A DNA stretch of 64,000 bases, from assembly GCA_947586855.1 (NCBI GenBank), contig CANPXV010000001.1:81350-145349 (forward strand). The letters run 5' to 3'. The DNA is from an uncultured Clostridia bacterium (lineage in GTDB: Bacteria; Bacillota; Clostridia; Christensenellales; CAG-314). The notes below the pieces were generated by a model, which saw only the letters and a list, made by a program, of their open reading frames with translations, was not told the origin of the DNA and made no database searches. Shown here piece after piece: positions 4,864 to 37,955 of this stretch (within the stretch, counting starts at the first letter, position 1; each line of letters begins with the position of its first letter). The translations under genes were made by a program, and so were the position numbers.

Positions 4864-4940
4864 TGGCGCGCCATAAGGAGCTCGAATCCCTAACCTTTGG
4901 TTCCGTAGACCAACGCTCTATCCAATTGAGCTAAAGGCGC
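4864..4940 (-). tRNA. tRNA-Arg (anticodon ACG), copy 1, with one acceptor-stem mismatch
   Basis: Hand-folded cloverleaf: GCGCCTT-TA-GCTC-AATTGGATA-GAGC-G-TTGGT-CTACGGA-ACCAA-AGGTT-AGGGA-TTCGAGC-TCCTT-ATGGCGC-G-CCA. Acceptor position 6 is a T:T mismatch. Confidence 0.85.
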
Positions 4941-5090: not shown

Positions 5091-5167
5091 TGGCGCGCCA
5101 TAAGGAGCTCGAATCCCTAACCTTTGGTTCCGTAGACCAACGCTCTATCCAATTGAGCTAATGGCGC
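5091..5167 (-). tRNA. tRNA-Arg (anticodon ACG), copy 2, with a perfect acceptor stem and encoded CCA
   Basis: Identical to copy 1 except for the 5' acceptor GCGCCAT, which pairs 7/7 with ATGGCGC. 77 nt. Confidence 0.92.
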
Positions 5168-5270: not shown

Positions 5271-6173
5271 CTATGCCCTATCCACAAACTGCGCCGCCAA
5301 AAAGCCCGCCACGGCACCGTCCCCCACGGCGGTGGCACACTGACGCACACTTTTGGTGCGGCAATCGCCTGCGGCAAAAATACCCTTGCGGCCGGTGAGG
5401 CAGTTTTCGCCCGCCACGATGTAGCCCTGCTCGTCCAATTCCACCAGGCTTGCAAAGGCCTCGTTGTGGGGTTGCTGCCCAATCGCCACAAACACGGCGT
5501 CGCAATCGATGTAGGTTATGGCGCCGTCGTCAGACTTGCAAACCACGCCCTTGACGCACTCGTCGCCCACAATCTCCGTGACGGCCACGCCCTGCGTCCA
5601 GACAACGCCCTGCGTCGCAAGCAGCCGCTGTTGCAGCTCCATATCGCAAAACAACCTGTCAAACAGGGTGACGAGGGTCACTTGCGAGCAAATTTCCGCC
5701 AGATACAGCGCATATTGCACGGCACTGTTGCCGTCGCCCACCACGCAGACGTGCTTGTCCTTGTAGAACGCACCGTCGCACACGGCGCAATAGCACACAC
5801 CCTTGCCCAAAAGGCGCTGCTCGCCCTCCACGCCCAGCTGTTTGTGCGTGACGCCCGTGGCCAGCACCACCGCACGGCACGGATAGGAGGCGTACTCCGT
5901 TGTGACCACAAAGCCGTTTTCGGCAGGCGCAACCGTGGCTGTGCCCATGTCAAAATCCACCCCGTGAGAGGTGGCCTGCTCAAACATTTTGTCGGCCAGC
6001 TGTGCGCCGCTCGTCTCCATGACGGAGGGGAAATTTTCCACCCTGGGGGCGATGGCTATCTGTCCGCCGAAAGCGTTGCTTTCCAGCAGCATAACCTTTT
6101 TGCCGGCACGGGCCGCATATAGCGAGGCGGTCAAACCCGCAGGTCCGCCGCCGATAACCACAATATCGTACAT
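5271..6173 (-). CDS. trxB: thioredoxin-disulfide reductase-like flavoprotein
   Basis: 300 aa with GGGPAG (FAD), a redox-active CAVC, and GDGNSAVQ (NADPH). It starts 9 nt after the nrdD stop. Confidence 0.88.
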   Translation of the reverse strand: MYDIVVIGGGPAGLTASLYAARAGKKVMLLESNAFGGQIAIAPRVENFPSVMETSGAQLADKMFEQATSHGVDFDMGTATVAPAENGFVVTTEYASYPCRAVVLATGVTHKQLGVEGEQRLLGKGVCYCAVCDGAFYKDKHVCVVGDGNSAVQYALYLAEICSQVTLVTLFDRLFCDMELQQRLLATQGVVWTQGVAVTEIVGDECVKGVVCKSDDGAITYIDCDAVFVAIGQQPHNEAFASLVELDEQGYIVAGENCLTGRKGIFAAGDCRTKSVRQCATAVGDGAVAGFLAAQFVDRA

Positions 6174-6182
6174 TTTTTGCCG

Positions 6183-8546
6183 TTATTTTGCGCTTTCGAT
6201 ATACTTGCGCACGTTGGACGCATTTTCGTATATCTTGTAGCTGTCGCCGTCGGCAACAACCAATGTGGGGGTAAGTTTGATCCGGAATTTTTGGGAAAGG
6301 TCGGCGTGCTGCATGGCGTTGATTTCCTCCACGTCCATGTTGGCCTTGTGCAGCATAAGCTCGGCCATCTTGCAGTTGGGGCAGTTGTCCTGCACAAACA
6401 GCAGCGGACGCAACAAGCAGGTCTGCGCCTTGGCTTCTTCCTTTTCGTGGGAGACAAGGCACTTCTTTTGCACGCTGTGCTCGGGCTGATAGGTCTTGCG
6501 ATCCTTCCACTCCTGCTGCTTGCCGTCGTTCCAATTTTGCACGGGGCGATAGTAGCCCGTTATGCGGCTGTACACCTCTGTCTTGGCGTGGCACTGAGGG
6601 CACTCGTACTGCTCGCCCGCAATGTAGCCGTGCTCGGGGCAGACAGAGTAGGTGGGGGACAGCGTGTAGTAGGGCAGACGATAGTTTTCGGCTATCGTGC
6701 GCACCAACTTCATTGCCGAACGCCAATCGGGCAGGCGCTCTCCCAAAAATCCGTGGAACACGGTGCCCGACGTATACAGCGTTTGCAGCTCATCCTGTAT
6801 ATCCAATGCATCAAAGATGTCGTAGGTGTAGCTGACAGGCAGGTGCGAGCTGTTGGTGTAGTAGGGGGTGCCGCCCTTTTTGCCGGCAAAGATCATGTCG
6901 GGATACAGCTTGGCGTCGTGTTTGGCCAAGCGATAAGCGGTCGACTCGGCCGGGGTGGCCTCCAAGTTGTACAGATCGCCGTATTTTTCCTGATAGTCGC
7001 TGAGTCGCTCTCTCATGTGGTTGAGCACCTTTTTGGTAAAGGCTTGCGCACGTGCGTCCGTCATGTCGCAGGCCAACCAGGCGGCATTGAGGCAGGCCTC
7101 GTTCATGCCCACAAGCCCGATGGTGGAAAAGTGGTTGTTGAATGTGCCCAGATAGCGCTTGGTGTAGGGATACAGCCCCGCCTCCATAAGCTGCGTGACG
7201 GTGGTACGCTTTATTTTGAGGGAGCGTGCGGCAATATCCATCATTTTGTCCAGCCGCTCAAAAAACTCCTTTTCGTCCTTGCTGAGGTAGGCGATACGGG
7301 GCATGTTGATCGTGACGACGCCGATACTGCCGGTGGACTCTCCGCTTCCGAAGAAGCCGCCGCTCTTTTTGCGAAGCTCTCTCAGATCCAGACGCAGACG
7401 GCAGCACATGCTGCGCACGTCGCTCGGCTCCATATCGCTGTTGATGTAGTTGCTGAAATAGGGCGTGCCGTACTTGGCTGTCATCTCAAACAGCAGCTTG
7501 TTGTTTTCTGTCTCGCTCCAATCGAAGTCCTTGGTGATGGAGTAGGTGGGGATGGGATATTGGAAGCCCCTGCCGTTGTAGTCGCCCTCTATCATGGTCT
7601 CGATGAAGGCCTTGTTCACCATGTCCATTTCCTTTTTGCAGTCCTTGTAGCGGAAGGGCATTTCCTTGCCGCCCACAATGCAGTGCAGCTCGGCCAGGTC
7701 GTTGGGCACAGTCCAATCCAGCGTGATGTTGCTGAATGGCGCCTGCGTGCCCCAACGGCTGGGGATATTGACGCCGTAGATGAAGGACTCGATACACTTT
7801 TTGGTCTCCTCGTAGGAGAGGTTGTCCGCCTTGACAAAGGGTGCAAGATAGGTATCGAAGGAGCTGAACGCCTGTGCGCCCGCCCACTCGTTGGCCATGA
7901 TACCGATAAAGTTGACCATCTGGTTGCACAGCGTGGCAAGGTGCTTGGCCGGTGCGGAGGTGATTTTGCTCGTCACGCCGCCAAGGCCCTCCTGAATGAG
8001 CTGTTTGAGGCTCCAACCGGCGCAGTAGCCGCTAAGCATGCCCAAGTCGTGCAGGTGGAGCGCACCGCTGCGATGCGCCTCGCCGATCTCCTCGTCGTAC
8101 ACCTCGCTGAGCCAATAGTTGGCCGTGATGGCGCCGCTGTTGGACAAAATGAGGCCGCCTACCGAATAGGTGACTGTGCTGTTCTCCTTGACGCGCCAAT
8201 CGGCAATTTTGAGGTAGTTGTCCACCACCGATTTGTAGTCCAAAAAGGTCTCGCCCGCACGACGAGCGTTCTCGTGCGATTTGCGGTACAAAATGTATGC
8301 CTTGGCAACGTCGGCATAGCCGGCCTGTATCAACACCGTCTCGGCGCTGTCCTGGATGTCCTCTACCGACACGATGCCGTCGGTAACTTTGTCCAGAAAG
8401 TCCGCAGTCACCTTCAACGCCAACATGTCGATGACGTCCTGCGTGTAGGGCTTGCCCGTGCCGTCGAAGGCCGCCTTGATAGCGTCGCTTATCTTGGAAA
8501 GTTTGAAGTCGATAACTTGTCCATTTCTCTTTTTTACACGATACAT
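6183..8546 (-). CDS. nrdD: anaerobic (class III) ribonucleoside-triphosphate reductase with a C-terminal thioredoxin/glutaredoxin-like extension
   Basis: ATP-cone-like N-terminus (RNGQVIDFKLSKISDAI). Zn ribbon CPEHG..CPQC. Glycyl-radical motif SRITGYYRPV. About 100 extra residues follow, carrying CPNC and LTPTLVV. Confidence 0.93.
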   Translation of the reverse strand: MYRVKKRNGQVIDFKLSKISDAIKAAFDGTGKPYTQDVIDMLALKVTADFLDKVTDGIVSVEDIQDSAETVLIQAGYADVAKAYILYRKSHENARRAGETFLDYKSVVDNYLKIADWRVKENSTVTYSVGGLILSNSGAITANYWLSEVYDEEIGEAHRSGALHLHDLGMLSGYCAGWSLKQLIQEGLGGVTSKITSAPAKHLATLCNQMVNFIGIMANEWAGAQAFSSFDTYLAPFVKADNLSYEETKKCIESFIYGVNIPSRWGTQAPFSNITLDWTVPNDLAELHCIVGGKEMPFRYKDCKKEMDMVNKAFIETMIEGDYNGRGFQYPIPTYSITKDFDWSETENNKLLFEMTAKYGTPYFSNYINSDMEPSDVRSMCCRLRLDLRELRKKSGGFFGSGESTGSIGVVTINMPRIAYLSKDEKEFFERLDKMMDIAARSLKIKRTTVTQLMEAGLYPYTKRYLGTFNNHFSTIGLVGMNEACLNAAWLACDMTDARAQAFTKKVLNHMRERLSDYQEKYGDLYNLEATPAESTAYRLAKHDAKLYPDMIFAGKKGGTPYYTNSSHLPVSYTYDIFDALDIQDELQTLYTSGTVFHGFLGERLPDWRSAMKLVRTIAENYRLPYYTLSPTYSVCPEHGYIAGEQYECPQCHAKTEVYSRITGYYRPVQNWNDGKQQEWKDRKTYQPEHSVQKKCLVSHEKEEAKAQTCLLRPLLFVQDNCPNCKMAELMLHKANMDVEEINAMQHADLSQKFRIKLTPTLVVADGDSYKIYENASNVRKYIESAK

Positions 8547-23024: not shown

Positions 23025-26000
23025 TTAATGTGAGATAGCGTAGTCGCCGATATCCAGAATTGCTCCGAAGTAGGGCGCACCGGCGCTTCCCGATACAGCA
23101 CCTGCCGACAAGTAAATACATACCTTGTTGTTATAAGCGTCCGCAGATTTTCCCATCCAATTTGAGCCAATAAATGTTCTCTGATCTACATCACCCCACG
23201 ATTTTGCACTTGCGGTTACTTTACCTGCTGTCCCAACTTGACTATAATAAGTTGTTATTCCGCTCTCAGTCGGATAGATAGAGTTATCCAGGTCTGTCGC
23301 CAGCCAACTATCGCCCATTTGTGCAAACAACAGATATTTACTTCCGTCTTTTTGTGTTATCTTGCGAGCCGTAGTAGTCAGTGAGTTGTGCATTGCAAAG
23401 GTAACAGGATTGTCACCGTAATCAAAGGTTGTTTTACCCGCTACATCCAGCGTGACCTTATCCTTGCCGTTGATCAAATCGCCGGGGCTGCAAATCATGA
23501 CGGCAATGACATTGAGATATTGGTTTTTGTCCTTATCTGCCGTATTATCGCCCTGGAACGAATGCATTGTGCCGTCTGCTGCTTTGACCCAACGAACAGT
23601 TTTGCCGACCTTGTTGAACAGATCTGTTTCAAGTTTACCACGCAACAGAGAAACAAGTGCAGCTGCATTGTTGGCGTCGTACCAGCTTTCGGCACCGGTT
23701 GCATATGCTTCCAGACGGCATTTGTCCTTGACCGTCAGGGTGGGGCCGCCAGTATCTGCTGTATTATACACGCCGTCGTTTTCAACTCTTTCTCCGTCGC
23801 ACAGGATGAACAACGGGCCGCCGGAGCCGACCATGTCGCAATCTTCAATTACGATGTTGCCACGCCAGGTGTAGACCATGTTGGAGTAGGCGTCGTAGAT
23901 CTTGGAGTGGACAACGTTGAATGCAGTTTGGAGATTGCCATAGTTGTCACCCACGATTGCAGTGAAGAAGTTGTTGGCGTTGATATTTTCGAAGTCGATG
24001 CAAGCATAGGTGTTGGCAAGCATGATTCCGCCGGGGGCAAAGTAGATGGTCTTGCCCTGATCGTAGTAGTCCTTTTGCGGGGTGGAGCCCTTCATGGCGA
24101 TGTTCTTGACCGTGAAGTGGTTGTCCTTGTGACCACGTGTAGAGTCGTTTGTGCCTTCTTTTGTGTTAGACAACAGCTGGAATACGCTCCAATGGGGCAC
24201 AGGGTCGCCGACCTTGGTGCTTGTTTCGTAGTCCACCAAAACTTGCAGCAAACGTCCGCCACGTTCCAAAATGTGTGTGAGGCTGAAATAGTTGCCGGAA
24301 ACGCTCACTTTGCAGGTGGCATAGAAACCTTTTTGCATGTTGAGTCCCAAACCGGTGTCAGGCTGAGTTGCACCGTTGTTCGCAATATCTGCTTTGTGGT
24401 CGAGCACACGGCAGTAGCTATAATATCCGTGTTCGCCGCTTATGACGCCGCTGTTGTCGCCGTCCTTCAACGAGCCGATAAGTTTTTCCTGCTGACGAGG
24501 CCAGCCTGCAAGAGATTGATAAGCCGCATAGTACAGCGGGTCACCCTCTTGCCAGAAGAAATCTTGCGGCATCTGCGTGGGATCCAGGTCGATGTCGTTG
24601 TGGAGAATTACCCAATCGACATTGCCGACATACTCGTACAGATAATTTTCGTCCGCAGCAAGTTTGACGGGGCTTGCGCCTGCCGAAAGCGTAACCGAGC
24701 CATCGTCACTCTGCGTAGCAGTTGCGCCCCACAGCGGTGCCCAAACCTTCTTTTGCAGGTCGTTCATCACGGACAGACCACGTTGGTCGTAGACGTTGTA
24801 GCCGCCCTTGACAAGTTTGAACTCGGCTGTGACCTTGTTCTGTACAGAGGAAGGAATCGAGTAACCACTACTCGTATCGAGCGATACAGTGAGGCGAACA
24901 AATGTGCCGTCTGCGATATCCTCGAACTTGTAGGTGTTGTTGTCTACTTTTACCCAATCACTTGTGTTGCCGCGGGTGAGATTGTGTGTTTTGAGCGAAG
25001 AATTTTCAAACGTTTCGCTCTCTTTGCGGAACTCTACTGTGGCAGTTGTGGTCGGGTTGTAGTCGTAGACAGCGTCAGCACCTTGGGGCTTGATACGTGC
25101 GATGGGACGGAAGATAAACTTGTTGACCGTGCCCACCTCGTAGACTTGATTGAGCTTCTTGAAGTAACCAAGACTGTCGCCCGTGTTGGTGGAGCGTTGC
25201 TTGTAGCTGTTGTAGGAGTCGGGTGCGCTGAACGACATCACGAGACCTTTCAGAGCCTCCTTCGATTCACCAACCAAATACAGGTTGCCCGTGACGGGAG
25301 TGCTAAGGTCGTAGGTTTTGGAGCCATTGTACCAAGTGGTTGCCTTGGCAAGGAAGTTTTTGAGTGCTTCGCTCGACTGTGCAGCAGTATTGAGGCTGGT
25401 GCCACTGCTGATAACGAAGTTTTGGACCTCTCCATTGTAGCTGAGTGTAACCAAATAGGTCACGGTGTTGTCCGCAGTCCATTTTGCATACAAGTGGGTT
25501 TCTGCGGTTACCGTTTTGTTTTCCGTCCATGGGTTACCCCAATCGCCGCCGGTGCCATCCTTGTCCCACCATCCTGCAAAGATGTAGCCGTTGCGTTTGG
25601 GTGTGGGCGGATTGTATTCTCCACCATTGCTTACCTTTGTGGTAAATGTCTCGCTGGCCTCATTGTTGAAGTGCAAAGTGACATTGAATACGTTGCTTGC
25701 GCTTGCGTCTTCTGTCCATTGAGCATAGAGGAACAAGTCGCTATCGATGATGTAGTTTTTTACCTTCTGGGCATCTTCGTTGAGCACAATGGGCCACGGA
25801 GCATGCTTTCCGGAAACAAAGTGATACCAATAGCAGAACGGGTTGTCTGAGGACAAAATCTTTGAGGGATCAAGCAATGCGCCATGCGTGTAGCCGGCTC
25901 TGGTGACAGGTTGAGATTTTGTGTCCAAAATCATCTTAATTTTACCCGTAATTGCCCGCAAATCTCCTACAGCACCTTCTTCATTGCCGCCCAAGTATTT

Positions 26001-29000
26001 CTTGACTATGTCCGTAAGCTTCGCCTTTAAGACTTCTCCCAAATCCGACTCTCCCTCGGCATCATAGTAGTAGCCCAACGAACCCGGCGCCCACGGCCAA
26101 GCAGTTTGCACAAATGACTTAGCTTCATTACCTTTACCCAGGGTGTCGCCTTGTTCTTTGATTTTGTCCAAAATGCCGTTGTAGACCAAGTCATTGATAA
26201 ACGTGGCACCCGTGGGCACTTCTGCGCCAATATTGGGTTGGCCGTTGCCCAGAATGATGTTTACACGGACGGAGTGATTCCACTTGGCGTAGAGGGTGAT
26301 TGCGATCTCTGCGTTATCCGGTTTTGCCTCGATAGTTTCCTTTTTGGTGGCGTCGGTTTGGTTTTCTTTGTCGCTGTACCAACCGGCAAACACGTAGCCC
26401 TTCAATGTGGGGACGTGCTCGGAGAGGTCCACCACGGTGCCCCAATCGACAAACAAACGCTCGGACTCGTCCATCAGGTTGTAGTCCAAAACGATTGTGA
26501 CCGTGCGGACTTGCCAATGAGCGTAGAAGTACTTGTAGCCGGGAACGTCGCCGACAGAGTAGTTGCCGTCCTGGGCGTTGCCGCCGATTTGATCGTCGAA
26601 CCAGCCGAGGAATTTGTTACCCTTGGCAAATTCGGCGTAGTAGTCTGCTCGTTCGAGTTGCGACTTCACATCACTGATCGAGATTTGCTTGTTGACATCG
26701 ACAGTTACCGTGATGACATGGTAGGCTGTAACTTCACTGTCGACATCTTCGATACCGGTGGAGAAGTAGACGGTAACTTGGCCCACCCACTTGGCGTAGA
26801 GGGTGACGTTGGCGTTGCCGATTGTGACTTGGTTGTCGCTGAATTTGTGGCCTTCGGTGCAACTCTCGTCGGTGTACCAGCCGTCGAACTTGTAGTTTTC
26901 ACGATCGATAGTTTCGGGAATATTTACTTTCTCGCCGCTGTAAAGGCCCTTTTCGCTGCCGCTCTTGTCTGTTACAACAGTGTCGTCTTGGCCGTCGAAG
27001 TTCCAATCGAATGTGACGGTGTACTTTGTCAACTCGGAATAGCGAGCGTACAGGTTGACGTCGGTTTCGCCAACTGTTTGATTTGTCCACTGTTCGCCGG
27101 CGGACTCATCGGTGAACCAGCCGTCGAATTTGTAACCACGGTTGGGGGTTACTTGGGGCAGGGTGAGCGTGTCGCCCTGGTTGACGGTGACGTTGTCGCT
27201 GCCGCTCAAGGAGCCGTTGGTGCCCACATGATAGGTTACTTTGCGAGGTATGGAGGCCTCGTTCCACTTGGCATACAGCGTCATATCGGCTGTGACAGGC
27301 GTTGTGTTTTCCCACTTGGTGCCTTCTTCTGTCTTGCCGTCCTTGGTGTACCAGCCGGCAAACGTATATTGTTTGTTGTCGGACTCGGGACGGCTGACGT
27401 TGGCGGGCAGCGTGATAGTGCCGTTGATGTCTACCGTTTGAGAGTCGGGGCCGTCCTTGGCGCCCTCGTAGTTGAGGTCGAACTTGACTGTGACTTGCTG
27501 CACCCACTTGGCGTACAGGGTGGTGTTGCCCGTTGTGGTTGTTGTTGCGCTCCACTTGGTTGTGTCAAGGGCGTCGCCCGTCTTGGTGTACCAGCCGTCG
27601 AAGCGGTAGCCTTGACGAGTGGGGTCGGTGGGCCAATTGTTTGCGCCCAGAGATTGTCCCTTATCCACCGTTACGGGGTCGTGAGGGGTGCCATCTGCGC
27701 CGTTGAGGTCGAAGGTGACGGTTGCCGTCTCTACCCAGCGGGCGTAGAGCGTTTTGTCGGTGGCAATGGCCGTGTTGGCGGTGTATTGTGTGCCGCCCTC
27801 GGTTTGCTCGTCGTACCAACCCACAAAGCGGTGATTTGCCCAAGAAGGATCGGCAGGCCAATTCTGTCCGAGAGTTGCGCCCTCGTTGACTGTCTTTTCG
27901 AGGTTATCCGTACCGTTGCCGTTGTAGTCGAAGGTGACAGTGACGGTTTTGTGCGACCAGTGCGCATAGTAGGTGACGTTTTGCGTGACGGGCGTGTTGG
28001 CGTCAACTTGCGTGCCGTTTGTTCTGTCGGTAAACCAACCCGCAAAGGTGTAGTGCTCGGGGGCCTTGTCGGTGCCGGCGGGCAGCTTGTCGCCGAGGGT
28101 TGTGTGCTCGTCGATGTTGTCGAACACCACCACTACATTGTCGGGGTTTTGGCCTGCGGGATAGTTGTAGTTGAATGTGACTGTGGCCTTGGTGACAATC
28201 CATCTGGCGTACAGGTTGTAGGTGTTTTCCGTGGCCGGGGTGGTGGCAAGCCATTTGTCGCCCCATTGGCCGTCGGTTGTGCCGTTTTTGGTGTACCAAC
28301 CGTCAAAACGATAGCCTTCGCGAGCGTCGGGTGTGGGCAGCTTGTCGCCCAAAGATTGACCCTTTTCTACCTTGGCGCTGATATCGGTGTGATCGCCGTC
28401 ATCAAGATAGAAGAATTGGAAGTTGGAGTAAGCGATGGCCGTCCACTTTGCGTAGAGGTTGAGGTTGCCCGTGACAAGGTCGTCCTCGTCCCATTGCTCG
28501 CCCCAATCGTCGTCGGTGCCATCCTTGGTGTACCAACCGTCAAAGTGATAGTCCTCTCTGGTGGGCTCGGTGGGGAATGTTACCGTGCTGCCGGCGTCGA
28601 CAGTTTTGTGCTCGACCTGAGAGCCGTTGTTGAATGCAACGTCGAATTGAACTTTGGCATTTTCTGTCCAGCGGGCGTACAGGTGCAGGTTCTCGTTGAC
28701 GGTCATATCCGCCGTCCACTTGGTGCCCCAAGCGCTGTCCTCGGTGGAGGTGCCGCCGTTGACCGTGTACCAACCGCCAAACGTGTGGTTGGTGTAGCCG
28801 GGCGTGGTAAGCTGGATCTTGTTGCCCTTTTCCACGCTGTACGAGTAGTCCGCCGTGGCGCCGTCGTTATAGTGCAGGGTGACGGTTACCTGGTTGGAGG
28901 GCTGAACGTCCCTGACCTTGACGGTGATGTTTACAACGCAGGATTTGCCGCCGTAGGTGACGGTGTAGGACGTTGCGCCCTCTTTGGAAAGGTCGGCTGT

Positions 29001-29240
29001 GGTGTGTGTAGCACCCCACTCTTTTACCGTTTTGGTGACGGGGTCGCCTTCCTCGAAGGTAACTTTCAGTTTAAGATTGTCGTAATCAATTACATTGTTG
29101 TCGCCGAGATAGAACTCTGTCTGGGCGTCAACGACTTCGATCTTTGTGACAACCTCATCCTTGCTGCACGCCGCAATTGTGGGCAACACAAATGCGATGA
29201 GCATGACAAGCGCAATCAAAAGTGAAAGCCTTTTTTTCAT
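23025..29240 (-). CDS. 2,071-aa surface lipoprotein with 12 Listeria-Bacteroides-type repeats and a large non-repeat C-terminal region
   Basis: Signal peptide MKKRLSLLIALVMLIAFVLPTIAAC (lipobox IAAC). There are 12 modules of the type Y-x-F-x-G-W-[YF]-T...L-Y-A-[KR]-W. The last ~850 aa are non-repetitive. Confidence 0.9.
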   Translation of the reverse strand: MKKRLSLLIALVMLIAFVLPTIAACSKDEVVTKIEVVDAQTEFYLGDNNVIDYDNLKLKVTFEEGDPVTKTVKEWGATHTTADLSKEGATSYTVTYGGKSCVVNITVKVRDVQPSNQVTVTLHYNDGATADYSYSVEKGNKIQLTTPGYTNHTFGGWYTVNGGTSTEDSAWGTKWTADMTVNENLHLYARWTENAKVQFDVAFNNGSQVEHKTVDAGSTVTFPTEPTREDYHFDGWYTKDGTDDDWGEQWDEDDLVTGNLNLYAKWTAIAYSNFQFFYLDDGDHTDISAKVEKGQSLGDKLPTPDAREGYRFDGWYTKNGTTDGQWGDKWLATTPATENTYNLYARWIVTKATVTFNYNYPAGQNPDNVVVVFDNIDEHTTLGDKLPAGTDKAPEHYTFAGWFTDRTNGTQVDANTPVTQNVTYYAHWSHKTVTVTFDYNGNGTDNLEKTVNEGATLGQNWPADPSWANHRFVGWYDEQTEGGTQYTANTAIATDKTLYARWVETATVTFDLNGADGTPHDPVTVDKGQSLGANNWPTDPTRQGYRFDGWYTKTGDALDTTKWSATTTTTGNTTLYAKWVQQVTVKFDLNYEGAKDGPDSQTVDINGTITLPANVSRPESDNKQYTFAGWYTKDGKTEEGTKWENTTPVTADMTLYAKWNEASIPRKVTYHVGTNGSLSGSDNVTVNQGDTLTLPQVTPNRGYKFDGWFTDESAGEQWTNQTVGETDVNLYARYSELTKYTVTFDWNFDGQDDTVVTDKSGSEKGLYSGEKVNIPETIDRENYKFDGWYTDESCTEGHKFSDNQVTIGNANVTLYAKWVGQVTVYFSTGIEDVDSEVTAYHVITVTVDVNKQISISDVKSQLERADYYAEFAKGNKFLGWFDDQIGGNAQDGNYSVGDVPGYKYFYAHWQVRTVTIVLDYNLMDESERLFVDWGTVVDLSEHVPTLKGYVFAGWYSDKENQTDATKKETIEAKPDNAEIAITLYAKWNHSVRVNIILGNGQPNIGAEVPTGATFINDLVYNGILDKIKEQGDTLGKGNEAKSFVQTAWPWAPGSLGYYYDAEGESDLGEVLKAKLTDIVKKYLGGNEEGAVGDLRAITGKIKMILDTKSQPVTRAGYTHGALLDPSKILSSDNPFCYWYHFVSGKHAPWPIVLNEDAQKVKNYIIDSDLFLYAQWTEDASASNVFNVTLHFNNEASETFTTKVSNGGEYNPPTPKRNGYIFAGWWDKDGTGGDWGNPWTENKTVTAETHLYAKWTADNTVTYLVTLSYNGEVQNFVISSGTSLNTAAQSSEALKNFLAKATTWYNGSKTYDLSTPVTGNLYLVGESKEALKGLVMSFSAPDSYNSYKQRSTNTGDSLGYFKKLNQVYEVGTVNKFIFRPIARIKPQGADAVYDYNPTTTATVEFRKESETFENSSLKTHNLTRGNTSDWVKVDNNTYKFEDIADGTFVRLTVSLDTSSGYSIPSSVQNKVTAEFKLVKGGYNVYDQRGLSVMNDLQKKVWAPLWGATATQSDDGSVTLSAGASPVKLAADENYLYEYVGNVDWVILHNDIDLDPTQMPQDFFWQEGDPLYYAAYQSLAGWPRQQEKLIGSLKDGDNSGVISGEHGYYSYCRVLDHKADIANNGATQPDTGLGLNMQKGFYATCKVSVSGNYFSLTHILERGGRLLQVLVDYETSTKVGDPVPHWSVFQLLSNTKEGTNDSTRGHKDNHFTVKNIAMKGSTPQKDYYDQGKTIYFAPGGIMLANTYACIDFENINANNFFTAIVGDNYGNLQTAFNVVHSKIYDAYSNMVYTWRGNIVIEDCDMVGSGGPLFILCDGERVENDGVYNTADTGGPTLTVKDKCRLEAYATGAESWYDANNAAALVSLLRGKLETDLFNKVGKTVRWVKAADGTMHSFQGDNTADKDKNQYLNVIAVMICSPGDLINGKDKVTLDVAGKTTFDYGDNPVTFAMHNSLTTTARKITQKDGSKYLLFAQMGDSWLATDLDNSIYPTESGITTYYSQVGTAGKVTASAKSWGDVDQRTFIGSNWMGKSADAYNNKVCIYLSAGAVSGSAGAPYFGAILDIGDYAISH

Positions 29241-29832: not shown

Positions 29833-31539
29833 TCAGTCCTCCACAAAGTACAGCTTGCAACGGGTGATATACAGGTATATCCTCACCGCAAGGAACACGA
29901 CCGCCACCGCCAAGGCCTTTACCAACGCCGCCATTGTGGGCGTCAGAGAGGAAATGACCAGGCCGCCGATATCGGATAGCAGATAGTACATCGCCGCAAA
30001 CAGCGCCGCCAGCAAAAAGCCTACCAGCGTTGCGTTGCGCTCGTTGGGACTGTCGAACTGCACACCAACCGTCTGGTATTGGTCGGCGTAGTTGTGCATG
30101 ACGTCCATTTCCGCACACCACAGCAGGTGCGCCTCGCCCACAAACAGCGTGATAAAGCACATTGCCGTGATCTCTTGCAGGGTGGCGCTATCCACGGCGC
30201 CGTGCCCTATCGACAGTGCCTCTATGTAGGCCACCTGCACCAATGCGGTGGACAAAAACACCGTCACCGCACGCACCGCTATGCGCCCAAACAACGTGTA
30301 GATGGGCTTTTGCGGACGGGTTTTGAGGATGTTGCGGGCTGCGCCCTCCCTGCTGTACACCGAGGCGAAGGCGTTGTTGAAGGCCAGCGTCATCACCAAC
30401 ATCACCAGCAAGCTGAATGTTTTGGTCATCACATAGCCGGAGTAGTTGGTGTTCATGGCCGCATACAGCCTGTTTTGGAAGAAGATGGCTATTGCGGGCA
30501 GCACCAGCTGCACAAAGCATCCCACAATGTAGGTTGTGCTGCGCATGTTCATCTGCAACGACTCTACAAAGGGAGAGATTTTGCGCTTGTGCACGTGGTT
30601 TTGCTTGGCCTTGACAGTGCGCTTGTCAAACTCGAACTGCTTGGAGGCCATCTTGATGAACATGGGCCTTGCGCAAAGGAATGATGCGCCGAGAAGTACC
30701 GTCAAGCCGGCAAAAAGCACGCCAAAGGTGGCAAAGGTTGCGCCCACAAAGATGTTGGAGGCGATCAGCAGCGTGCCGCCCACCATCATGGTGGTCAGGC
30801 GATAGTAGGGGTAGGAATACACAGAGAATTTTTGCAAAAAATCCTGTATCGCCACAAAAATGCTGCCCCATTGCCCCAAAATGTTGATGTTGTTGGGTAT
30901 CATGCCTATCAGGCGCACCAACAGAAAGGCTATCGTGCCCGCACCTGCCAACGCCAACACGGCCTGCAACCACTTGAAGCGTCCCACAAACACGCCCACA
31001 TACAGGGCGGGTATGGACAAGATGGCGGCAATGGCCACGGGCACCATCGATACAAACAAAAAGCACAACAGCAACCAGGGGTAGTAGTACCACACGGCGC
31101 CGTTTATCATGCCGTAGGCGATAAATATGGGCAACGTGAGGCCGATGTTCTTTTTTAGCTCGAAAATGTAGTACAGTATCAGCTTGGAGATGTACACGCA
31201 GGTGCTGCTGACGGGCAAGGTGAGCAGCACTTTGTTATCCGCCGTCATGTACAGCGTTTGCGTGAGGCCCACGGTGCAGGTGACAATGGACATCAGCTGG
31301 ATGACCGTGAACAAGATGTTGACTACCGAGTCGGGAATGACGCCCGACGGACGGAAGATGGACAACATGTTGCACACCATAAACAGCACAAAGAAGATGG
31401 CCACGGCCACCACCATTTTGATGATGGCCAGCACCACTTTGATGATGGTAGAACGCACGCTGCGGATAAAGGACAGATCCAACTTGTCCCGCAGCTGCAT
31501 CATCACAAGCGTTTTGAGATTGCGCAAATAGACTTTCAC
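29833..31539 (-). CDS. 568-aa polytopic membrane protein, putative permease partner of the upstream ABC ATPase
   Basis: GTG start overlapping the ABC gene stop (GTGA). Many hydrophobic segments throughout. No soluble domain recognised. Confidence 0.75.
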   Translation of the reverse strand: MKVYLRNLKTLVMMQLRDKLDLSFIRSVRSTIIKVVLAIIKMVVAVAIFFVLFMVCNMLSIFRPSGVIPDSVVNILFTVIQLMSIVTCTVGLTQTLYMTADNKVLLTLPVSSTCVYISKLILYYIFELKKNIGLTLPIFIAYGMINGAVWYYYPWLLLCFLFVSMVPVAIAAILSIPALYVGVFVGRFKWLQAVLALAGAGTIAFLLVRLIGMIPNNINILGQWGSIFVAIQDFLQKFSVYSYPYYRLTTMMVGGTLLIASNIFVGATFATFGVLFAGLTVLLGASFLCARPMFIKMASKQFEFDKRTVKAKQNHVHKRKISPFVESLQMNMRSTTYIVGCFVQLVLPAIAIFFQNRLYAAMNTNYSGYVMTKTFSLLVMLVMTLAFNNAFASVYSREGAARNILKTRPQKPIYTLFGRIAVRAVTVFLSTALVQVAYIEALSIGHGAVDSATLQEITAMCFITLFVGEAHLLWCAEMDVMHNYADQYQTVGVQFDSPNERNATLVGFLLAALFAAMYYLLSDIGGLVISSLTPTMAALVKALAVAVVFLAVRIYLYITRCKLYFVED

Positions 31540-33842
31540 CGATTGGCCTCCGCGTCCTTGCGACGTTTGCTGCGTTTCTCCTTGGAGGGCTTGGCGCCGC
31601 CCTCACCGCCTGATGTGCCGCCCTCGACGGGTATCGGCTCCACCTCGCTGCCGTTGATGACGGACATGTAGAATTGTTCCAGACTCTGGCCGGAGGCCTC
31701 CATCTCGTGCACGTCACGCACGCATTGGATCTGACCCTTGCGGATGATGGCTATGCGGTCGCAGATACGCTCCACCACGTCGATGATGTGGCTGCTGAAA
31801 AACACAATGTTGCCCGCCTCGGCGTGCTCCCTCATGCACTCCTTCACCTGAAAGATGCTGTTGGGGTCCAGACCGGTGAGCGGTTCGTCCAAGATCCACA
31901 CCTTGGGGTTGTGGATGAGCGCCGACATTATCGTAACTTTTTGCTTCATTCCGTGCGAGAAGGTGCGGATGGGGTTGTCCAGCGCAGCGGTCAGTTCAAA
32001 ACGCTCCGCCATGCGAGAAAGCCTCTCGTCACGATCCTGTTTGGACACCTCGTACAAATCGGCGATGTAGTTGATATACTCACGTGCTGTCAGCCGCTCG
32101 TACAGTGCGTAGTGGTCGGGCACAAAGCCTATTTGGCGCTTGGCCATGACGGATTGCGTTGCTACGTCGTAGCCGCACACCTCGATGGCACCCTCGGTGA
32201 TGGTCTGTATGCCCACGATGCTCTTGATGATGGTGGATTTGCCTGCGCCGTTGGGGCCCAAAAAGCCGTAAATCTCGCCGCCGCACACTTCCAGATCGGC
32301 GTCCTTGACGGCATAGACGTCACTGCTGCCGTAGCGCTTGGTAAATTTTTTGAGAACGAGTTTGTTTGCGTTTTCCATGTTCATTGGCTCCTCGATGCTT
32401 CTGCCTGCCAGCTTGACCTCCAAGGCAAGCCTGTCGGCATGTATTTTTTTGTTGCGTTCCACAATATCCAACCAGCCCGCAGCGGCGTTGTAGCCCAATT
32501 CGTAGATGAACCACATGCCGAACGCAAAGCCGTAGTACACAATAAGAAACAAAAACTGATACAGCGGATAGAAGATGAATTTCAGTTCTCCTATGCTGAA
32601 ACTCCACACAAAGTTGCGGGTGTCCCTTGCCCACTGACCAAGTTTGTCCACTATGAAGTCACTGTTGAGGAAGAAGTAGTCTACGCTGGCATTGTAGTTG
32701 GTAAACCAGGCGTTTACTATCAACATCAACACAAAGTACACCGAAAACCCTATCATGCTGTACTTGAATTCCTTCAAGCGGGGGCGGCGGAATATGCCCA
32801 GCCCCACCACCAACAGCGGCATAAAGAACGCTTGATAGTGGTTCATGTAGAACAGCCATATGCTGATGCCGAGAATGCTGATACCCTCGTTGTAGTTGGG
32901 CATTATCATCGCCAAAAATGCGCCCAACACGTTGATAAAGTAGGTAAAGTAGAAAAACTTTTTCCACTTGAATGTGAGGCACAGCGGCGTGATGTACATG
33001 GCGGTGTTGCACAAGTGCAAGGGCAGCGCCGTCACCCAGCTGGGGCCGAAGAAATCGGCAAAACGGTGGTAAAAACTGAAATTGAGCAGGCCCAGCCAGG
33101 CGTAGTACATCATGGCAAAACGCTTGGTGTCCATAGGCTTGTCTCTCAGCAGCACAAACAGCACGATGGGTATGATGATCGCAGGATACAGTATCATGCG
33201 GTGGTAGATGTTGAAATCGTGCGGGTTCATGGTAAACTTGTTCGGGTCGGACATCACCTGCAAGCCGTAGCTGGGGAATGCGGCAAACAGGCAGCCCACC
33301 ACCGCCAACGCAAACCATATCCACTCCTTTTTGCGCAAAATGACCTTGTCAAGATTGACAACGGTGTACACAACGCAGAAGCCCAAACCAAGGCCCGTTT
33401 CCAACCCGATAAGCATGGCTCGGACGTCAAACGTTTGCAGGGCCTCGCCGCCCGTGATGGCCAGCACGTGGCCGGGAAACATCACCGTGTTAAACACAAA
33501 TATGGGCAGCGCAACGTATGCGATCAGCGCAGGCAGCGTGCGCACCTTGAAGAAGGGCGCCAACACCACCAACATCTCCGCTGCGTAGGCAAACCACACC
33601 TGAAACAACGCCACCGTGATCAGCTCCTTGGAGCCGATAGTGTCGTTGGGTTGCCTGTTGATCATGTTGGCAATGACGTCCTGTCCCAACATATAGCGGA
33701 AGAACAACGCCGTCGCCAACAACAACGAAAATGTTTTTAGTGCGATGTTTAGTTTTGTCGGAAGTTTTTTGTTGAGCACCAACCCAACTGCGATAACCGC
33801 CGCAGCGCCTGCCGCACCGACCAGATAGTAGACTGCTGTCAT
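31536..33842 (-). CDS. 768-aa fusion of an N-terminal polytopic membrane domain (~470 aa) with a C-terminal ABC ATPase
   Basis: AAGGAGAGG SD. NBD motifs GPNGAGKST, FSHGMKQKV, VWILDEP and FFSSHI. Gly-rich then Lys/Arg-rich C-terminal tail. Confidence 0.9.
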   Translation of the reverse strand: MTAVYYLVGAAGAAAVIAVGLVLNKKLPTKLNIALKTFSLLLATALFFRYMLGQDVIANMINRQPNDTIGSKELITVALFQVWFAYAAEMLVVLAPFFKVRTLPALIAYVALPIFVFNTVMFPGHVLAITGGEALQTFDVRAMLIGLETGLGLGFCVVYTVVNLDKVILRKKEWIWFALAVVGCLFAAFPSYGLQVMSDPNKFTMNPHDFNIYHRMILYPAIIIPIVLFVLLRDKPMDTKRFAMMYYAWLGLLNFSFYHRFADFFGPSWVTALPLHLCNTAMYITPLCLTFKWKKFFYFTYFINVLGAFLAMIMPNYNEGISILGISIWLFYMNHYQAFFMPLLVVGLGIFRRPRLKEFKYSMIGFSVYFVLMLIVNAWFTNYNASVDYFFLNSDFIVDKLGQWARDTRNFVWSFSIGELKFIFYPLYQFLFLIVYYGFAFGMWFIYELGYNAAAGWLDIVERNKKIHADRLALEVKLAGRSIEEPMNMENANKLVLKKFTKRYGSSDVYAVKDADLEVCGGEIYGFLGPNGAGKSTIIKSIVGIQTITEGAIEVCGYDVATQSVMAKRQIGFVPDHYALYERLTAREYINYIADLYEVSKQDRDERLSRMAERFELTAALDNPIRTFSHGMKQKVTIMSALIHNPKVWILDEPLTGLDPNSIFQVKECMREHAEAGNIVFFSSHIIDVVERICDRIAIIRKGQIQCVRDVHEMEASGQSLEQFYMSVINGSEVEPIPVEGGTSGGEGGAKPSKEKRSKRRKDAEANR

Positions 33843-34022: not shown

Positions 34023-34490
34023 TCAGGACAAAAAACAAACCTTGTGTCGGTAGGATACCGCCGCACAAAGTTTGTTGCTAACGCAAAAATCATCGCCGCA
34101 AACATATTTGCAGTTTGCACCGATGAATTGCGAACTATGCGCCGCATTGGACGACGTGATAACCCACGTCGAAACACACCACAGCGCAACAAAAATGAGA
34201 CCTAACAGGCTATATTGGGCATACCCCCCCCCGTGGCGAATTTGCTCAAACGCAAAAACTATGCCTCGCTCCAACAGGCGCACGGTTTGGGGCGTGACGA
34301 TGGACGAATTGTGCTCTACGTCCTTCATCACAAGGCTCAGCAACAACAGCAACAAAAACATAGCAAGAAAACTGACAGCCTTGCACAGGCAGCTGCCGAG
34401 TTTTTCTACCTTGATCTGCAATGATTGCGAGCGCTCGTTTTGGATTATGCGAGAGCCGTAAACAAATTTGTGCATTTTTGCCACGTCCAT
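34023..34490 (-). CDS. doubtful 155-codon ORF (two hydrophobic segments) containing a G9 tract
   Basis: It is the only sizeable ORF downstream of the 34610-34637 promoter. It has no SD and atypical composition, so it may not be coding. Confidence 0.2.
   Translation of the reverse strand: MDVAKMHKFVYGSRIIQNERSQSLQIKVEKLGSCLCKAVSFLAMFLLLLLLSLVMKDVEHNSSIVTPQTVRLLERGIVFAFEQIRHGGGYAQYSLLGLIFVALWCVSTWVITSSNAAHSSQFIGANCKYVCGDDFCVSNKLCAAVSYRHKVCFLS
34224..34232. repeat. homopolymer tract C9 (G9 on minus strand)
   Basis: Direct read: 9 consecutive c. On the minus strand this encodes HGGGY in the doubtful ORF. Confidence 0.95.
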
Positions 34491-34495
34491 TGCCG

Positions 34496-34579
34496 AAAAT
34501 TTGGGGGTTTGCCCTCAAACTTGGGGATTTTGACCTCAAATTCGGAAATTTGCGCCCAAATTCGAGATTTTTCTCCCCC
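34496..34579 (-). repeat. four phased direct repeats of 20-22 nt
   Basis: Minus strand reads GGGGGAGAAAAATCTCGAATTT / GGGCGCAAATTTCCGAATTT / GAGGTCAAAATCCCCAAGTTT / GAGGGCAAACCCCCAAATTTT, lying immediately downstream of the predicted TSS. Confidence 0.75.
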
Positions 34580-34609
34580 GAAAAGTTAAAATCACACTTT
34601 GACGACATA

Positions 34610-35075: not shown

Positions 35076-35141
35076 GACTGCGGCCCATTTTGCCGCAGTC
35101 CCAAAACAAAAGGTGGAAGTGCACATTTGTACGCTTCCACC
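35076..35141 (-). terminator. tandem hairpins terminating the giant-gene/926-aa operon
   Basis: Minus strand reads GGTGGAAG-cgtacaaatgtgca-CTTCCACC followed by TTTTGTTTTGG. A second 9-bp hairpin follows: GACTGCGGC-aaaatgg-GCCGCAGTC. Confidence 0.65.
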
Positions 35142-35174: not shown

Positions 35175-37955
35175 TTATTGTTTGTTGTCATCATCCAATT
35201 CGTCTTTTTCCGTTTCCTCGACGGTCTTGGATGTCACAAACAGACCGGGGGCAATTTCTATCGGGGCAGAGTTGTCTTCTTCTGTCTTGGCCTTGCCTTG
35301 GTCGAAAATAGCTTCGTCGGCGGCAAACTTGATGTCTCGCTTGGCAAGTCCTTTCTTTATCAGCTCCACAATGCCTTCGTAGGGCATGTAGTAGTCTTCT
35401 GCCTCTCGCTCGATACGCTCGATGCCCATCCGTTCCATTGCCATTGCAACAAGCTCAACTGCGTACTTGGCACGCTTGCCGCTCTTGATACGATACATGG
35501 CGGGGGTATCAAAGTTGGACGGAGTGTCGGAGACATCTTCCAGTTGATACTTGCTATCCACAAACTCTGTCACGTCCAACGGCAGGAAGAGGCACAGCGT
35601 CTTGCCGCGGAAGGACAATTTTGCAACGACGATCTTGCCCACCTTGAAGGTCTCGCGCTTCCAGCTCATGCGGCACTTGGACTTTTTGTAATTGAGTATC
35701 TCGTTCTTGATGTCGTTATACCAGAATTTGACATCATCTTCCGACTGGATCAACCTTGCGGTAAAGCTGCGATCGTAGCGCAATCTGCCGGCTTCCACCG
35801 ACTCCTCCTCGATGATGATGGGCTCGCGCTGCTTGCGCTCCTCCTCGGGCAGGGCAACAACGTTGATACGGTAGCCGACCGTTCTGTCCTGATACACTAC
35901 CGAAACAGTGGGAGAGCCTTCCTTGTCCATATCGGGCGGCAACACAGTGTAGTCCTGCACCTCCTCGGTGAAAGGCTCGGCATTGTAGCTGGCGGTAACC
36001 ACCAATCCGTCGTGATTGAGGGCGTCGCCCACAAAGAATTCCTTTTGCACGTTGTCGGTGTTGAGGGACAGCGAAACAAGCTCGCGAATCACCCGTTCGG
36101 GCACTTCGGGCACCTCGGTTGCGGCGACTTCTTTTTCCGTTTCCTCGACGGTCTTGGATGTCACAAACAGACCGGGGGCAATTTCTATCGGGGCAGAGTT
36201 GTCTTCTTCTGTCTTGGCCTTGCCTTGGTCGAAAATAGCTTCGTCGGCGGCAAACTTGATGTCTCGCTTGGCAAGTCCTTTCTTTATCAGCTCCACAATG
36301 CCTTCGTAGGGCATGTAGTAGTCTTCTGCCTCTCGCTCGATACGCTCGATGCCCATCCGTTCCATTGCCATTGCAACAAGCTCAACTGCGTACTTGGCAC
36401 GCTTGCCGCTCTTGATACGATACATGGCGGGGGTATCAAAGTTGGACGGAGTGTCGGAGACATCTTCCAGTTGATACTTGCTATCCACAAACTCTGTCAC
36501 GTCCAACGGCAGGAAGAGGCACAGCGTCTTGCCGCGGAAGGACAATTTTGCAACGACGATCTTGCCCACCTTGAAGGTCTCGCGCTTCCAGCTCATGCGG
36601 CACTTGGACTTTTTGTAATTGAGTATCTCGTTCTTGATGTCGTTATACCAGAATTTGACATCATCTTCCGACTGGATCAACCTTGCGGTAAAGCTGCGAT
36701 CGTATCGCAATCTGCCGGCCTCGACCGATTCTTCCTCGATGATGATGGGCTCGCGCTGCTTGCGCTCCTCCTCGGTGAGCTCGCTGACGGAAATTGTGTA
36801 GTATGCGGTTTGACCGTCAAATTTGACGGCAACTTCCTTGTCGCCCGCAACGGACATATCCGGCTTGATCACATAGCAACCGACCAACTCATTTTCGGCG
36901 GTGATATGGTCGTACAGCTGCTGATCGACAACGGCAAACTCCGCAACGGTTTCGCTTGTGGGGTCAAGATCGTATTGAGCGTTGATCACAAGGCCGTTAC
37001 AATCGAATTCATCGCCCTCAGTAAACTGACATCTTACGGCCGCAAGGTCCAAGGTGACGCCCACAAGTTTGCGCTCGGCAGGTTCTTCTTGCGGCTGAAC
37101 GTCCTCTTCTTTGGAGGAAACAACGATCATGTACATGGCCGATTTATCCTTGTAGCAAACAGTGACGGCAGGCTTGCCCTCTTGCGACAGGTCGGGAAGG
37201 ATGACATAGCAATCGTCGGTATCCTTTTCGGAAAGGGCAGCATACTCTTCCGCAGAGAGGAGGCTGAACTCGATAATAGTTTCGGCAAGGGGTTCCTCGC
37301 TGTAGTTGGCGGTAACCATCAGGCCGTCGCAATTGAACTCGTCGCCAACGACGAAATCCCGTTGCACCACTTCCAGATTGAGGTCCAACCCCACAAGAGT
37401 ACGCACGGAATCCGTTTCCTGCACGGGCGTCTCGACGACAACGGGTGCAACGACGGGTGCGGGAGCTTCTTCGTGCTCGCCCACGGAAATGACGTACAGC
37501 GCTTGCTGTCCCTGGTAGCACACCGTAACAGACACCTTGCCCTCGACGGATGTGTCGGGATAGAGCGCATAGCACACGTCCAGAGGGCCTTTTTCCTGAA
37601 GCATTTCCAGAGTTTCGGGTGTGAACACCGCCACCTTGGAGATAGGTTCGGACATGGGGTCCAGATTGTAGTTTGCCGTTACTACCAGCCCGTCGCAGTT
37701 GAACTGCTCGCCCACATCGAACGTGCGCTTGACCATGGATAGGTCGAGAGTCAGTCCGGTGAGTATACGTTCGCTGGGCTTGGTGTCGACGACGATTTTG
37801 TTGGTGCCGACACGCTTGATAAGTATTGCAAAGACAAGTACCATAAACATTATCAATGCAACTTGCACAATCAAAAGCCAAAACAGTGCGCTTTCGAGAG
37901 GCCAATCGAATTCCCAATTGAAGATCTTCATTTTGTCTGACAACAGATTAAACAT
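35175..37955 (-). CDS. 926-aa membrane-anchored protein: TM, three Ig-like (Big_3-like) modules, domain X, a fourth Ig-like module, domain X again
   Basis: N-terminal helix LFWLLIVQVALIMFMVLVFAILI. The ~95-aa modules follow L.G[LV].L....V...F..G[DE].F[ND]C.GL.VTA.Y...P. Two copies of a ~210-aa Lys/Glu-rich domain (RLRYDRSFTARLIQSEDDVKFWYNDIKNEILNYKK..). The start lies 20 nt after the giant ORF stop. Confidence 0.85.
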   Translation of the reverse strand: MFNLLSDKMKIFNWEFDWPLESALFWLLIVQVALIMFMVLVFAILIKRVGTNKIVVDTKPSERILTGLTLDLSMVKRTFDVGEQFNCDGLVVTANYNLDPMSEPISKVAVFTPETLEMLQEKGPLDVCYALYPDTSVEGKVSVTVCYQGQQALYVISVGEHEEAPAPVVAPVVVETPVQETDSVRTLVGLDLNLEVVQRDFVVGDEFNCDGLMVTANYSEEPLAETIIEFSLLSAEEYAALSEKDTDDCYVILPDLSQEGKPAVTVCYKDKSAMYMIVVSSKEEDVQPQEEPAERKLVGVTLDLAAVRCQFTEGDEFDCNGLVINAQYDLDPTSETVAEFAVVDQQLYDHITAENELVGCYVIKPDMSVAGDKEVAVKFDGQTAYYTISVSELTEEERKQREPIIIEEESVEAGRLRYDRSFTARLIQSEDDVKFWYNDIKNEILNYKKSKCRMSWKRETFKVGKIVVAKLSFRGKTLCLFLPLDVTEFVDSKYQLEDVSDTPSNFDTPAMYRIKSGKRAKYAVELVAMAMERMGIERIEREAEDYYMPYEGIVELIKKGLAKRDIKFAADEAIFDQGKAKTEEDNSAPIEIAPGLFVTSKTVEETEKEVAATEVPEVPERVIRELVSLSLNTDNVQKEFFVGDALNHDGLVVTASYNAEPFTEEVQDYTVLPPDMDKEGSPTVSVVYQDRTVGYRINVVALPEEERKQREPIIIEEESVEAGRLRYDRSFTARLIQSEDDVKFWYNDIKNEILNYKKSKCRMSWKRETFKVGKIVVAKLSFRGKTLCLFLPLDVTEFVDSKYQLEDVSDTPSNFDTPAMYRIKSGKRAKYAVELVAMAMERMGIERIEREAEDYYMPYEGIVELIKKGLAKRDIKFAADEAIFDQGKAKTEEDNSAPIEIAPGLFVTSKTVEETEKDELDDDNKQ
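35203..35848. repeat. intragenic duplication, copy 1 (C-terminal domain X)
   Basis: Positions 35203-35777 are identical base for base to 36130-36704 (575 bp). The next 71 bp carry 5 mismatches. The offset is exactly 927 bp (309 codons). Confidence 0.95.
36130..36775. repeat. intragenic duplication, copy 2 (internal domain X)
   Basis: See copy 1; aligned by direct reading of both stretches. Confidence 0.95.

Follow-up and report, generated by a model that had tools for sequence, protein, structure and literature searches.

Why do two copies of one domain within a single gene remain nearly identical in DNA when the modules around them have diverged strongly? The question is raised by a gene at 35175-37955 of a 64,000-nucleotide (nt) stretch from an uncultured Clostridia bacterium of the rabbit gut (assembly GCA_947586855.1, contig CANPXV010000001.1, positions 81,350 to 145,349), the whole of which is called the window here. 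The gene lies on the minus strand, as do all of its parts described below. Its open reading frame (ORF) and translation give a protein of 926 amino acids (aa) with an N-terminal membrane anchor, three immunoglobulin-like modules (Ig1, Ig2 and Ig3), a first copy of an uncharacterised domain X with its tail (X1), a linker, a fourth module (Ig4), a second copy of X (X2) and a 9-aa tail. The original prediction took the identity of the copies as the mark of either a very recent duplication or ongoing gene conversion of domain X, and named an assembly artefact as a further possibility. We favour, with moderate confidence and from comparison of sequences, the reading that the X copies are kept alike by gene conversion acting on an old duplication.

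Base-by-base comparison confirmed that 35203-35777 equals 36130-36704 at 575 of 575 positions. At the same offset of 927 base pairs (bp) the match continues to 35848 and 36775, giving two copies of 646 bp. Their only mismatches lie at 35778, 35793, 35796, 35802 and 35805, the five differences that had been counted in the 71 bp next to the exact match, and X1 and X2 share 98.9% nt identity. The same repeat pair was recovered by an independent repeat search. The edges of the repeat are sharp, with identity at the 927-bp offset dropping to 13-47% within 30 bp beyond each edge, and only 646 of the 927 bp of the repeat period are identical, the remainder being at random-level identity. Chance cannot account for a repeat of 646 bp. 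The offset equals 309 codons of the minus-strand ORF, exactly as proposed, and the protein copies at aa 395-608 and aa 704-917 are 100% identical. All five mismatches fall at third codon positions and are synonymous (P ~4e-4), and they are confined to 28 of the 646 bp (P = 1e-5 for random placement), forming a five-site patch at 36705-36732 in X1 whose partner sites in X2 lie at 35778-35805. One point of the earlier description has to be corrected: since the gene is on the minus strand, 36130-36775 (aa 394-609) is the upstream copy X1, and 35203-35848 (aa 703-918) is the C-terminal copy X2.

The modules that flank the copies are indeed strongly diverged. Ig1 (aa 61-172), Ig2 (aa 183-283) and Ig3 (aa 293-393), which together occupy 36777-37775, show pairwise aa identities of 39-49% and also come up as self-hits in tblastn, and the four Ig modules taken together are 35-49% identical to each other. 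Ig4 is shorter than Ig1-Ig3, and it alone matches a Pfam family, Big_3 (PF07523), at aa 639-698 with 34.3 bits against a gathering threshold of 21.2. A linker of 16 aa (EVAATEVPEVPERVI) stands between X1 and Ig4, and linker and Ig4 make up the 281-bp spacer B (35849-36129), which has a single full-length copy in the window and carries the repeat on both sides. The membrane anchor is a single transmembrane (TM) helix at aa 23-46 (37818-37889) followed by KR..K, as read from the translation.

A scan of species-representative genomes with 12 closer sequences as query returned 73 distinct loci, almost all from rabbit-gut metagenome-assembled genomes (MAGs) of uncultured Clostridia. The loci L006, L007 and L008 align at ~74% nt identity to the 926-aa gene and to the 3' end of the giant gene upstream of it, and are therefore orthologous; their Ig1-Ig3 are orthologous to Ig1-Ig3 of the window. 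L008, which comes from a sister species, has the same layout as the window (Ig1, Ig2, Ig3, X1, linker, Ig4, X2). It shares with the window the junction at which the EVAATES linker (EVAATE) runs into RELVSLSLNTDN (EVAATE/RELVSLSL), and its Ig4 occupies the same residues 625-702 as the window Ig4 with 92% aa identity. The orthologues L006, L007 and L009 carry five Ig modules and one X, and have a C-terminal tail with EVAATES, which follows X1 in the window. Comparison of orthologues, suggested earlier as a way to decide whether one or two X domains is ancestral, finds two copies in L008 and one in the other three. The shared junction and the module positions in L008 indicate that a single in-frame duplication of a ~930-bp unit (linker, Ig4, X and tail) in this membrane-anchored protein would have preceded the split of the window species and the L008 species; its age is judged from one two-X orthologue species, L008.

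Free divergence since that duplication would make X1 and X2 of one genome differ at least as much as the two species differ, and the opposite was observed. Between the window and L008, the nt identity is 95% in the TM region, 82% in Ig1, 78% in Ig2 and 88% in Ig4, but 70% in the X core, where about half of the third positions differ. Within L008, X1 and X2 are ~98% identical in the X core (88.9% over a 660-nt stretch that includes diverged tails), and within the window species their identity is at least 97.5% even with possible merged differences, which are discussed below. This contrast argues for homogenisation of the two copies.

The limits of the identical block also differ between the two species. 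The block of the window runs from the first residues of X through the X tail, to 9 codons before the stop codon. In L008, where the repeat has an offset of 936 bp and is perfect over ~5860-6254 (395 bp between neighbouring differences), the block begins in the middle of the preceding Ig module and ends at the end of the X core, before the tail; the tails of L008 are L006-like after X1 and L010-like after X2. A hybrid Ig3 is also present at 5758-5997 of L008, with an N-terminal half orthologous to the window Ig3 (including an unusual Cys, VKCEF/VRCQF) and a C-terminal half equal to Ig4. The differences that remain between the copies are patchy. X1 agrees with L007, L008 and L009 at three to four of the five sites in the window patch, and some of the X2 states occur in L006, L010 or L011; at many patch sites the alternative states are likewise present in orthologues. 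The patch states are therefore old alleles, left as relics, and not new mutations.

Of the two readings first offered for the identity, it is thus gene conversion of domain X that is supported. Similarity is higher within genomes (98.9% and ~98%) than between them (70%, with flanks at 78-95%), synteny, module order, Ig4 and the junction place the duplication before the divergence of the species, and the identity is a mosaic with lineage-specific tract edges. We propose that, after the duplication, homologous recombination between the X copies would have made them alike again and again, by intragenic gene conversion that is presumably RecA-dependent. X would then evolve in concert within each genome and diverge quickly between genomes. 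Each species would have its own end points for the conversion tracts, and where short patches escaped conversion, clusters of differences, most of them synonymous, would persist. How the copies recombine and in which direction they are converted is what we infer from these patterns.

The comparison assemblies, which have SPAdes-style names and 3.8-5.6x coverage, bear on how perfect the identity is. The 926-aa protein, exact or with one or two substitutions, is also encoded by L001, L079 and L080, three assemblies made from other samples. Of these, L080 (ERZ27060014) departs from the window at two sites, neither of them in the repeat. Six sites differ in L001 (ERZ27249433, coverage 3.8), and five of the six are those of the X1 patch, which carries the X2 state there. 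L079 (ERZ27249236, coverage 3.9) has 22 differences, made up of one set of 11 that occurs in each copy (X nt 271-420; ten synonymous changes and one Gly to Ala), and none in ~7.8 kilobases (kb) of non-repeat sequence. This eleven-site patch lies at 36357-36506 in X1, where the replacement is Gly517Ala, and the same 11 changes lie at 35430-35579 in X2. The sister species shows a comparable pattern at 11 sites in the same part of X: with the two states called a and b, L008 is a/b (X1 = a, X2 = b), L082 is b/b and L083 is a/a, and no other difference was found among them in 10.7 kb.

Short-read de Bruijn-graph assemblers merge near-identical repeats by bubble merging and loop traversal. In such a graph, both X copies would share one path, flank-linked differences would be kept, and interior 1:1 bubbles would be merged to one branch that is then written into both copies. 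The assemblies described above fit this behaviour: within one strain, nearly all differences fall in the repeat and appear in both copies alike, and those linked to a flank survive. Between the eleven-site patch of the window and the nearest flank-linked difference or repeat edge are 199 bp on one side and 227 bp on the other, and the patch is therefore beyond the reach of k-mers or single short reads for phasing. The true X1 and X2 probably differ at ~16 of 646 sites (2.5%), in a five-site and an eleven-site patch. The perfection over 575 bp is probably overstated, and the longest truly identical stretch may be ~230 bp. The copies cannot differ much more than this, because denser differences would have been phased and kept. 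Merging accounts for the excess perfection only, and not for the duplication or the high similarity. With 16 sites in two patches, there are two difference-free gaps of at least 199 bp (P = 5.5e-5) and the identity is still a mosaic, so that the conclusion of gene conversion is independent of this assembly caveat. A repeat that looks perfect in a short-read MAG can be a consensus product, and strain differences that are symmetric in both copies are a warning sign.

Several points weigh against gene conversion on an old duplication. The identity and the copy number of the loop formed by B and the repeat were taken from assembled contigs, not from reads. The two-X state is not universal, the nearest orthologues L006, L007 and L009 having a single X, which leaves room for independent duplication in two lineages. 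The X of L008 is of a somewhat different sequence type, nearer to that of L010 and L011, and exchange with other X-bearing genes therefore contributed besides conversion between X1 and X2. Finally, the a/a and b/b assemblies, and L079 with the alternative states in both copies, could be genuine recent conversions and not merged bubbles.

The alternative that survives best extends this last point. The identity would be truly perfect and the differences between assemblies real, with frequent two-way conversion and unit deletion leading to a/b, a/a, b/b or one-unit forms in clonal populations of different animals. We consider it unlikely, though deserving of serious attention. The patterns of L001 and L079 and of L008, L082 and L083 are evidence for it as well, and 646-bp repeats 281 bp apart are a good substrate for recombination. 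A candidate for the one-unit form is a 590-aa member of the sister-species cluster (L081, from Logan ERR10663725), whose length is 902 minus 312, exactly one Ig-X unit. In comparison with L008 5815-7489, its X is X1-type to X nt 468 and X2-type from nt 501, with flanks identical to L008, and a crossover between the copies would be expected to yield a chimeric X of this kind. However, real frequent conversion requires several independent events on backgrounds with 0-2 other single-nucleotide polymorphisms in 9-11 kb, and each of the deviant assemblies is either covered only 3.8-5.6x or a k=31 Logan contig, the kind of data in which merged bubbles and mis-joins are expected. In addition, the eleven-site patch, ~200 bp from both the linked difference and the far edge, falls just where k-mers and short reads do not phase.

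The 590-aa form also bears on the claim that the repeat is a substrate for RecA-mediated deletion or expansion of one Ig-X unit. It may be either a real recombinational deletion or a mis-join of the k=31 Logan contig across a 32-nt shared stretch. Deletion or expansion is thus plausible, whereas the resulting size variation of the protein is unproven. In the window species, the three distinct sequences in the 90% cluster of the protein are all 926 aa long, and a fourth assembly encodes the window's own sequence.

A very recent, independent duplication in the window lineage, with copies too young to diverge, is quite improbable. It would agree with the near-identity of X1 and X2 and with the single X of the nearest orthologues, but a recent tandem duplication should be identical over its whole period and its second copy should be absent in relatives. 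Instead, 281 of the 927 bp stand at random level, and the second copy is present in L008 with the same architecture, junction and Ig4 position. The differences between the copies, moreover, are clustered, nearly all synonymous and at many sites shared with orthologues. This half of the original prediction is therefore not supported.

That the assembler wrote one real X copy twice is extremely improbable, even though all comparison assemblies are apparently short-read, to judge from their contig names. Spacer B is unique and encodes an intact, in-frame Ig module with the repeat on each side, so any linear molecule holding B passes through the repeat twice. Five flank-linked differences distinguish X1 from X2, all four assemblies of the window species encode 926 aa with the same layout, and another species has this layout too. 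As far as these sequences can tell, the duplication itself is not an assembly error, and the suspected artefact probably concerns only part of the 575-bp perfection.

That selection acts directly on the nucleotides, through an RNA structure or through an element embedded in one strand or the other, can be set aside with near certainty, since nothing was found in its support: no Rfam family lies in the gene, no Pfam family matches the 854-aa ORF that covers the repeat on the plus strand, and the strong RNA-level constraint once envisaged for orthologues does not apply, because the L008 copies are near-identical to each other yet unlike those of the window at about half of the third positions, which argues for homogenisation and not for constraint on a particular RNA.

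Gene conversion on an old duplication thus acts, as we see it, on a domain that belongs to no named family. X gave no match in Pfam or NCBIfam, and the search with the whole protein gave Big_3 for Ig4 only. A sequence-profile search of the PDB with the X alignment returned low-complexity or TM noise only, and a PHROGs search with X nothing significant. An AlphaFold (AF2) model of X from 48 homologues has a mean predicted local distance difference test score (pLDDT) of 85, with the core above 95. Foldseek searches with this domain gave best E values of 0.017 against the PDB and 0.005 against viral models, none of them at or below 0.001. The best, weak matches of the X core are YjbR, DUF1801 (YdhG) and DUF5655-like alpha+beta folds (Foldseek E 5e-3 to 4e-2, template-modelling score about 0.4-0.5 on the target). 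These families have no sequence similarity to X, their folds imply no function, and X is not a demonstrated member of them. No JGI metagenome contig matched an exact 45-mer taken from the repeat, and literature searches turned up nothing specific to the X family.

The family is nevertheless large. At 50% identity, a full HMMER search yields no fewer than 3,483 clusters, and those ranked highest have two to seven X stretches. X-family proteins of note are P0209, P0192, P0232, P0235 and P0318. About 20 of the 73 scan loci have two to four X per ORF, with intragenic X-X nt identity mostly of 66-75%, and neighbouring X copies that are 87-97% identical in nt occur, with at least one pair each, in L008, L019, L070, L075 and L078. 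The view that two-X proteins are unique to the window gene was rejected: the X-only search behind it gave proteins of at most 375 aa, and the locus scan and HMMER found more.

In every homologue inspected, a short N-terminus that is either uncharged or acidic leads into a single helix, with basic residues clustered right behind it; this predicts an N-out, C-in topology. The protein past the TM helix is therefore probably cytoplasmic. In some proteins of 1,600-4,700 aa with beta-helix and Listeria-Bacteroides repeats, the TM-X part stands at the C-terminal end, after the extracellular repeats, and is followed by a uL15-like domain (PF00828). In other genomes an X gene lies directly after the gene of a large surface protein, as in the window. 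These arrangements suggest that X probably lies in the cytoplasm, as a module with a functional link to giant surface proteins. The X family may be weightier than the repeat itself, being large, unnamed, found in gut Clostridia, probably cytoplasmic, often multiplied and tied to giant surface proteins by gene order and fusion. A bolder picture, which we regard as improbable, is that in an essentially clonal gut strain the X modules convert both ways and that whole Ig-X units come and go as fast as the strain spreads from host to host. If true, the giant adhesin would have a partner whose cytoplasmic tail is a rapidly variable, recombination-driven locus. A separate part of this picture is that X may be a new cytoplasmic module coupling giant surface proteins to the cell interior.

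The upstream neighbour of the 926-aa gene, at 37976-63904 on the minus strand, encodes an 8642-aa repetitive surface protein, as judged from its ORF and domain matches. It has MBG (YGX-type) domains, many diverged repeats spaced about 300-360 bp, and a C-terminal TM anchor with a basic tail, where the anchor is accompanied by RRRKGNKKQRTK; no LPXTG motif was seen there. Its stop codon lies 21 bp ahead of the start codon of the 926-aa gene, and the pair of genes is kept in L006, L007 and L008. As listed, the ORF has a GTG start 96 bp from the window end and no signal peptide, and its true N-terminus may therefore be elsewhere. On the other side of the 926-aa gene, a terminator-like hairpin with UUUUGUUUU (a U-tract) occupies 35103-35141 on the minus strand, starting 34 nt past the stop codon (fold -22.6 kcal/mol, z = -3.7), and is the predicted end of the transcription unit. 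The promoter and terminator scan gave nothing notable inside the gene; plus-strand promoter-like matches at 35467 and 36394 are the repeat counted twice. Long antisense ORFs, of up to 854 aa, run on the plus strand opposite both genes, at 35178-37742 and at 38297-63730. They look like shadow ORFs that would arise because the coding strand is strongly skewed in composition, with an AT skew of about -0.2 over 38-64 kb.

Further observations concern the rest of the window. A 155-aa ORF without a family match (34023-34490) contains a run of nine G in the minus-strand reading (34224-34232), the length of which is equal in L001, L079 and L080 in gapless alignments. Ahead of this ORF are a perfect 12/12 match to a sigma-70-type promoter (34637-34610) and recurring AATTTG-like motifs (~34520-34600). 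In a 768-aa protein at 31536-33842 (minus strand), a membrane domain of the TMEM164 family is joined to an ABC-transporter ATPase domain, and the next gene, at 29833-31539 (minus strand), matches ABC_tran_2. A second large surface protein in the window, of 2071 aa, is encoded at 23025-29240 on the minus strand and has at least 10 Listeria-Bacteroides repeat domains (Flg_new). Two distant tRNA genes (4867-4940 and 5094-5167, minus strand) are the sole Rfam matches in the 64 kb.

Several known systems resemble the X repeat in part. Ig4 passes the threshold of Big_3, and Ig1-Ig3 are diverged relatives of it. Big_3 domains are normally extracellular, whereas the topology of the window protein suggests a cytoplasmic position. 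Surface proteins of Gram-positive bacteria, such as the alpha C/Rib family of group B Streptococcus and Aap/SasG, contain identical in-frame domain repeats. In them, as here, in-frame repeats identical in DNA encode whole modules, and gain or loss of units alters the size of the protein. However, they form long tandem extracellular arrays, whereas the window protein has two copies split by a diverged Ig module, of a domain that is probably cytoplasmic, with its own size variation still unproven.

Concerted evolution of duplicated bacterial sequences through RecA-dependent gene conversion has reportedly been described for tufA/tufB in Salmonella and for rRNA operons, in work ascribed to Abdulkarim and Hughes (1996), Liao (2000) and Santoyo and Romero (2005). 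Unlike those duplicates, the copies in the window are found inside one gene, 281 bp apart, each of them a whole domain, and conversion here is deduced from sequence. Similar to tufA/tufB and the rRNA operons, they are more alike within a genome than between species, their identity is patchy with tract edges, and their duplication is older than the identity suggests. Near-identical intragenic repeats therefore need not be young, and the finding is a new example of a familiar mechanism, on an unnamed domain.

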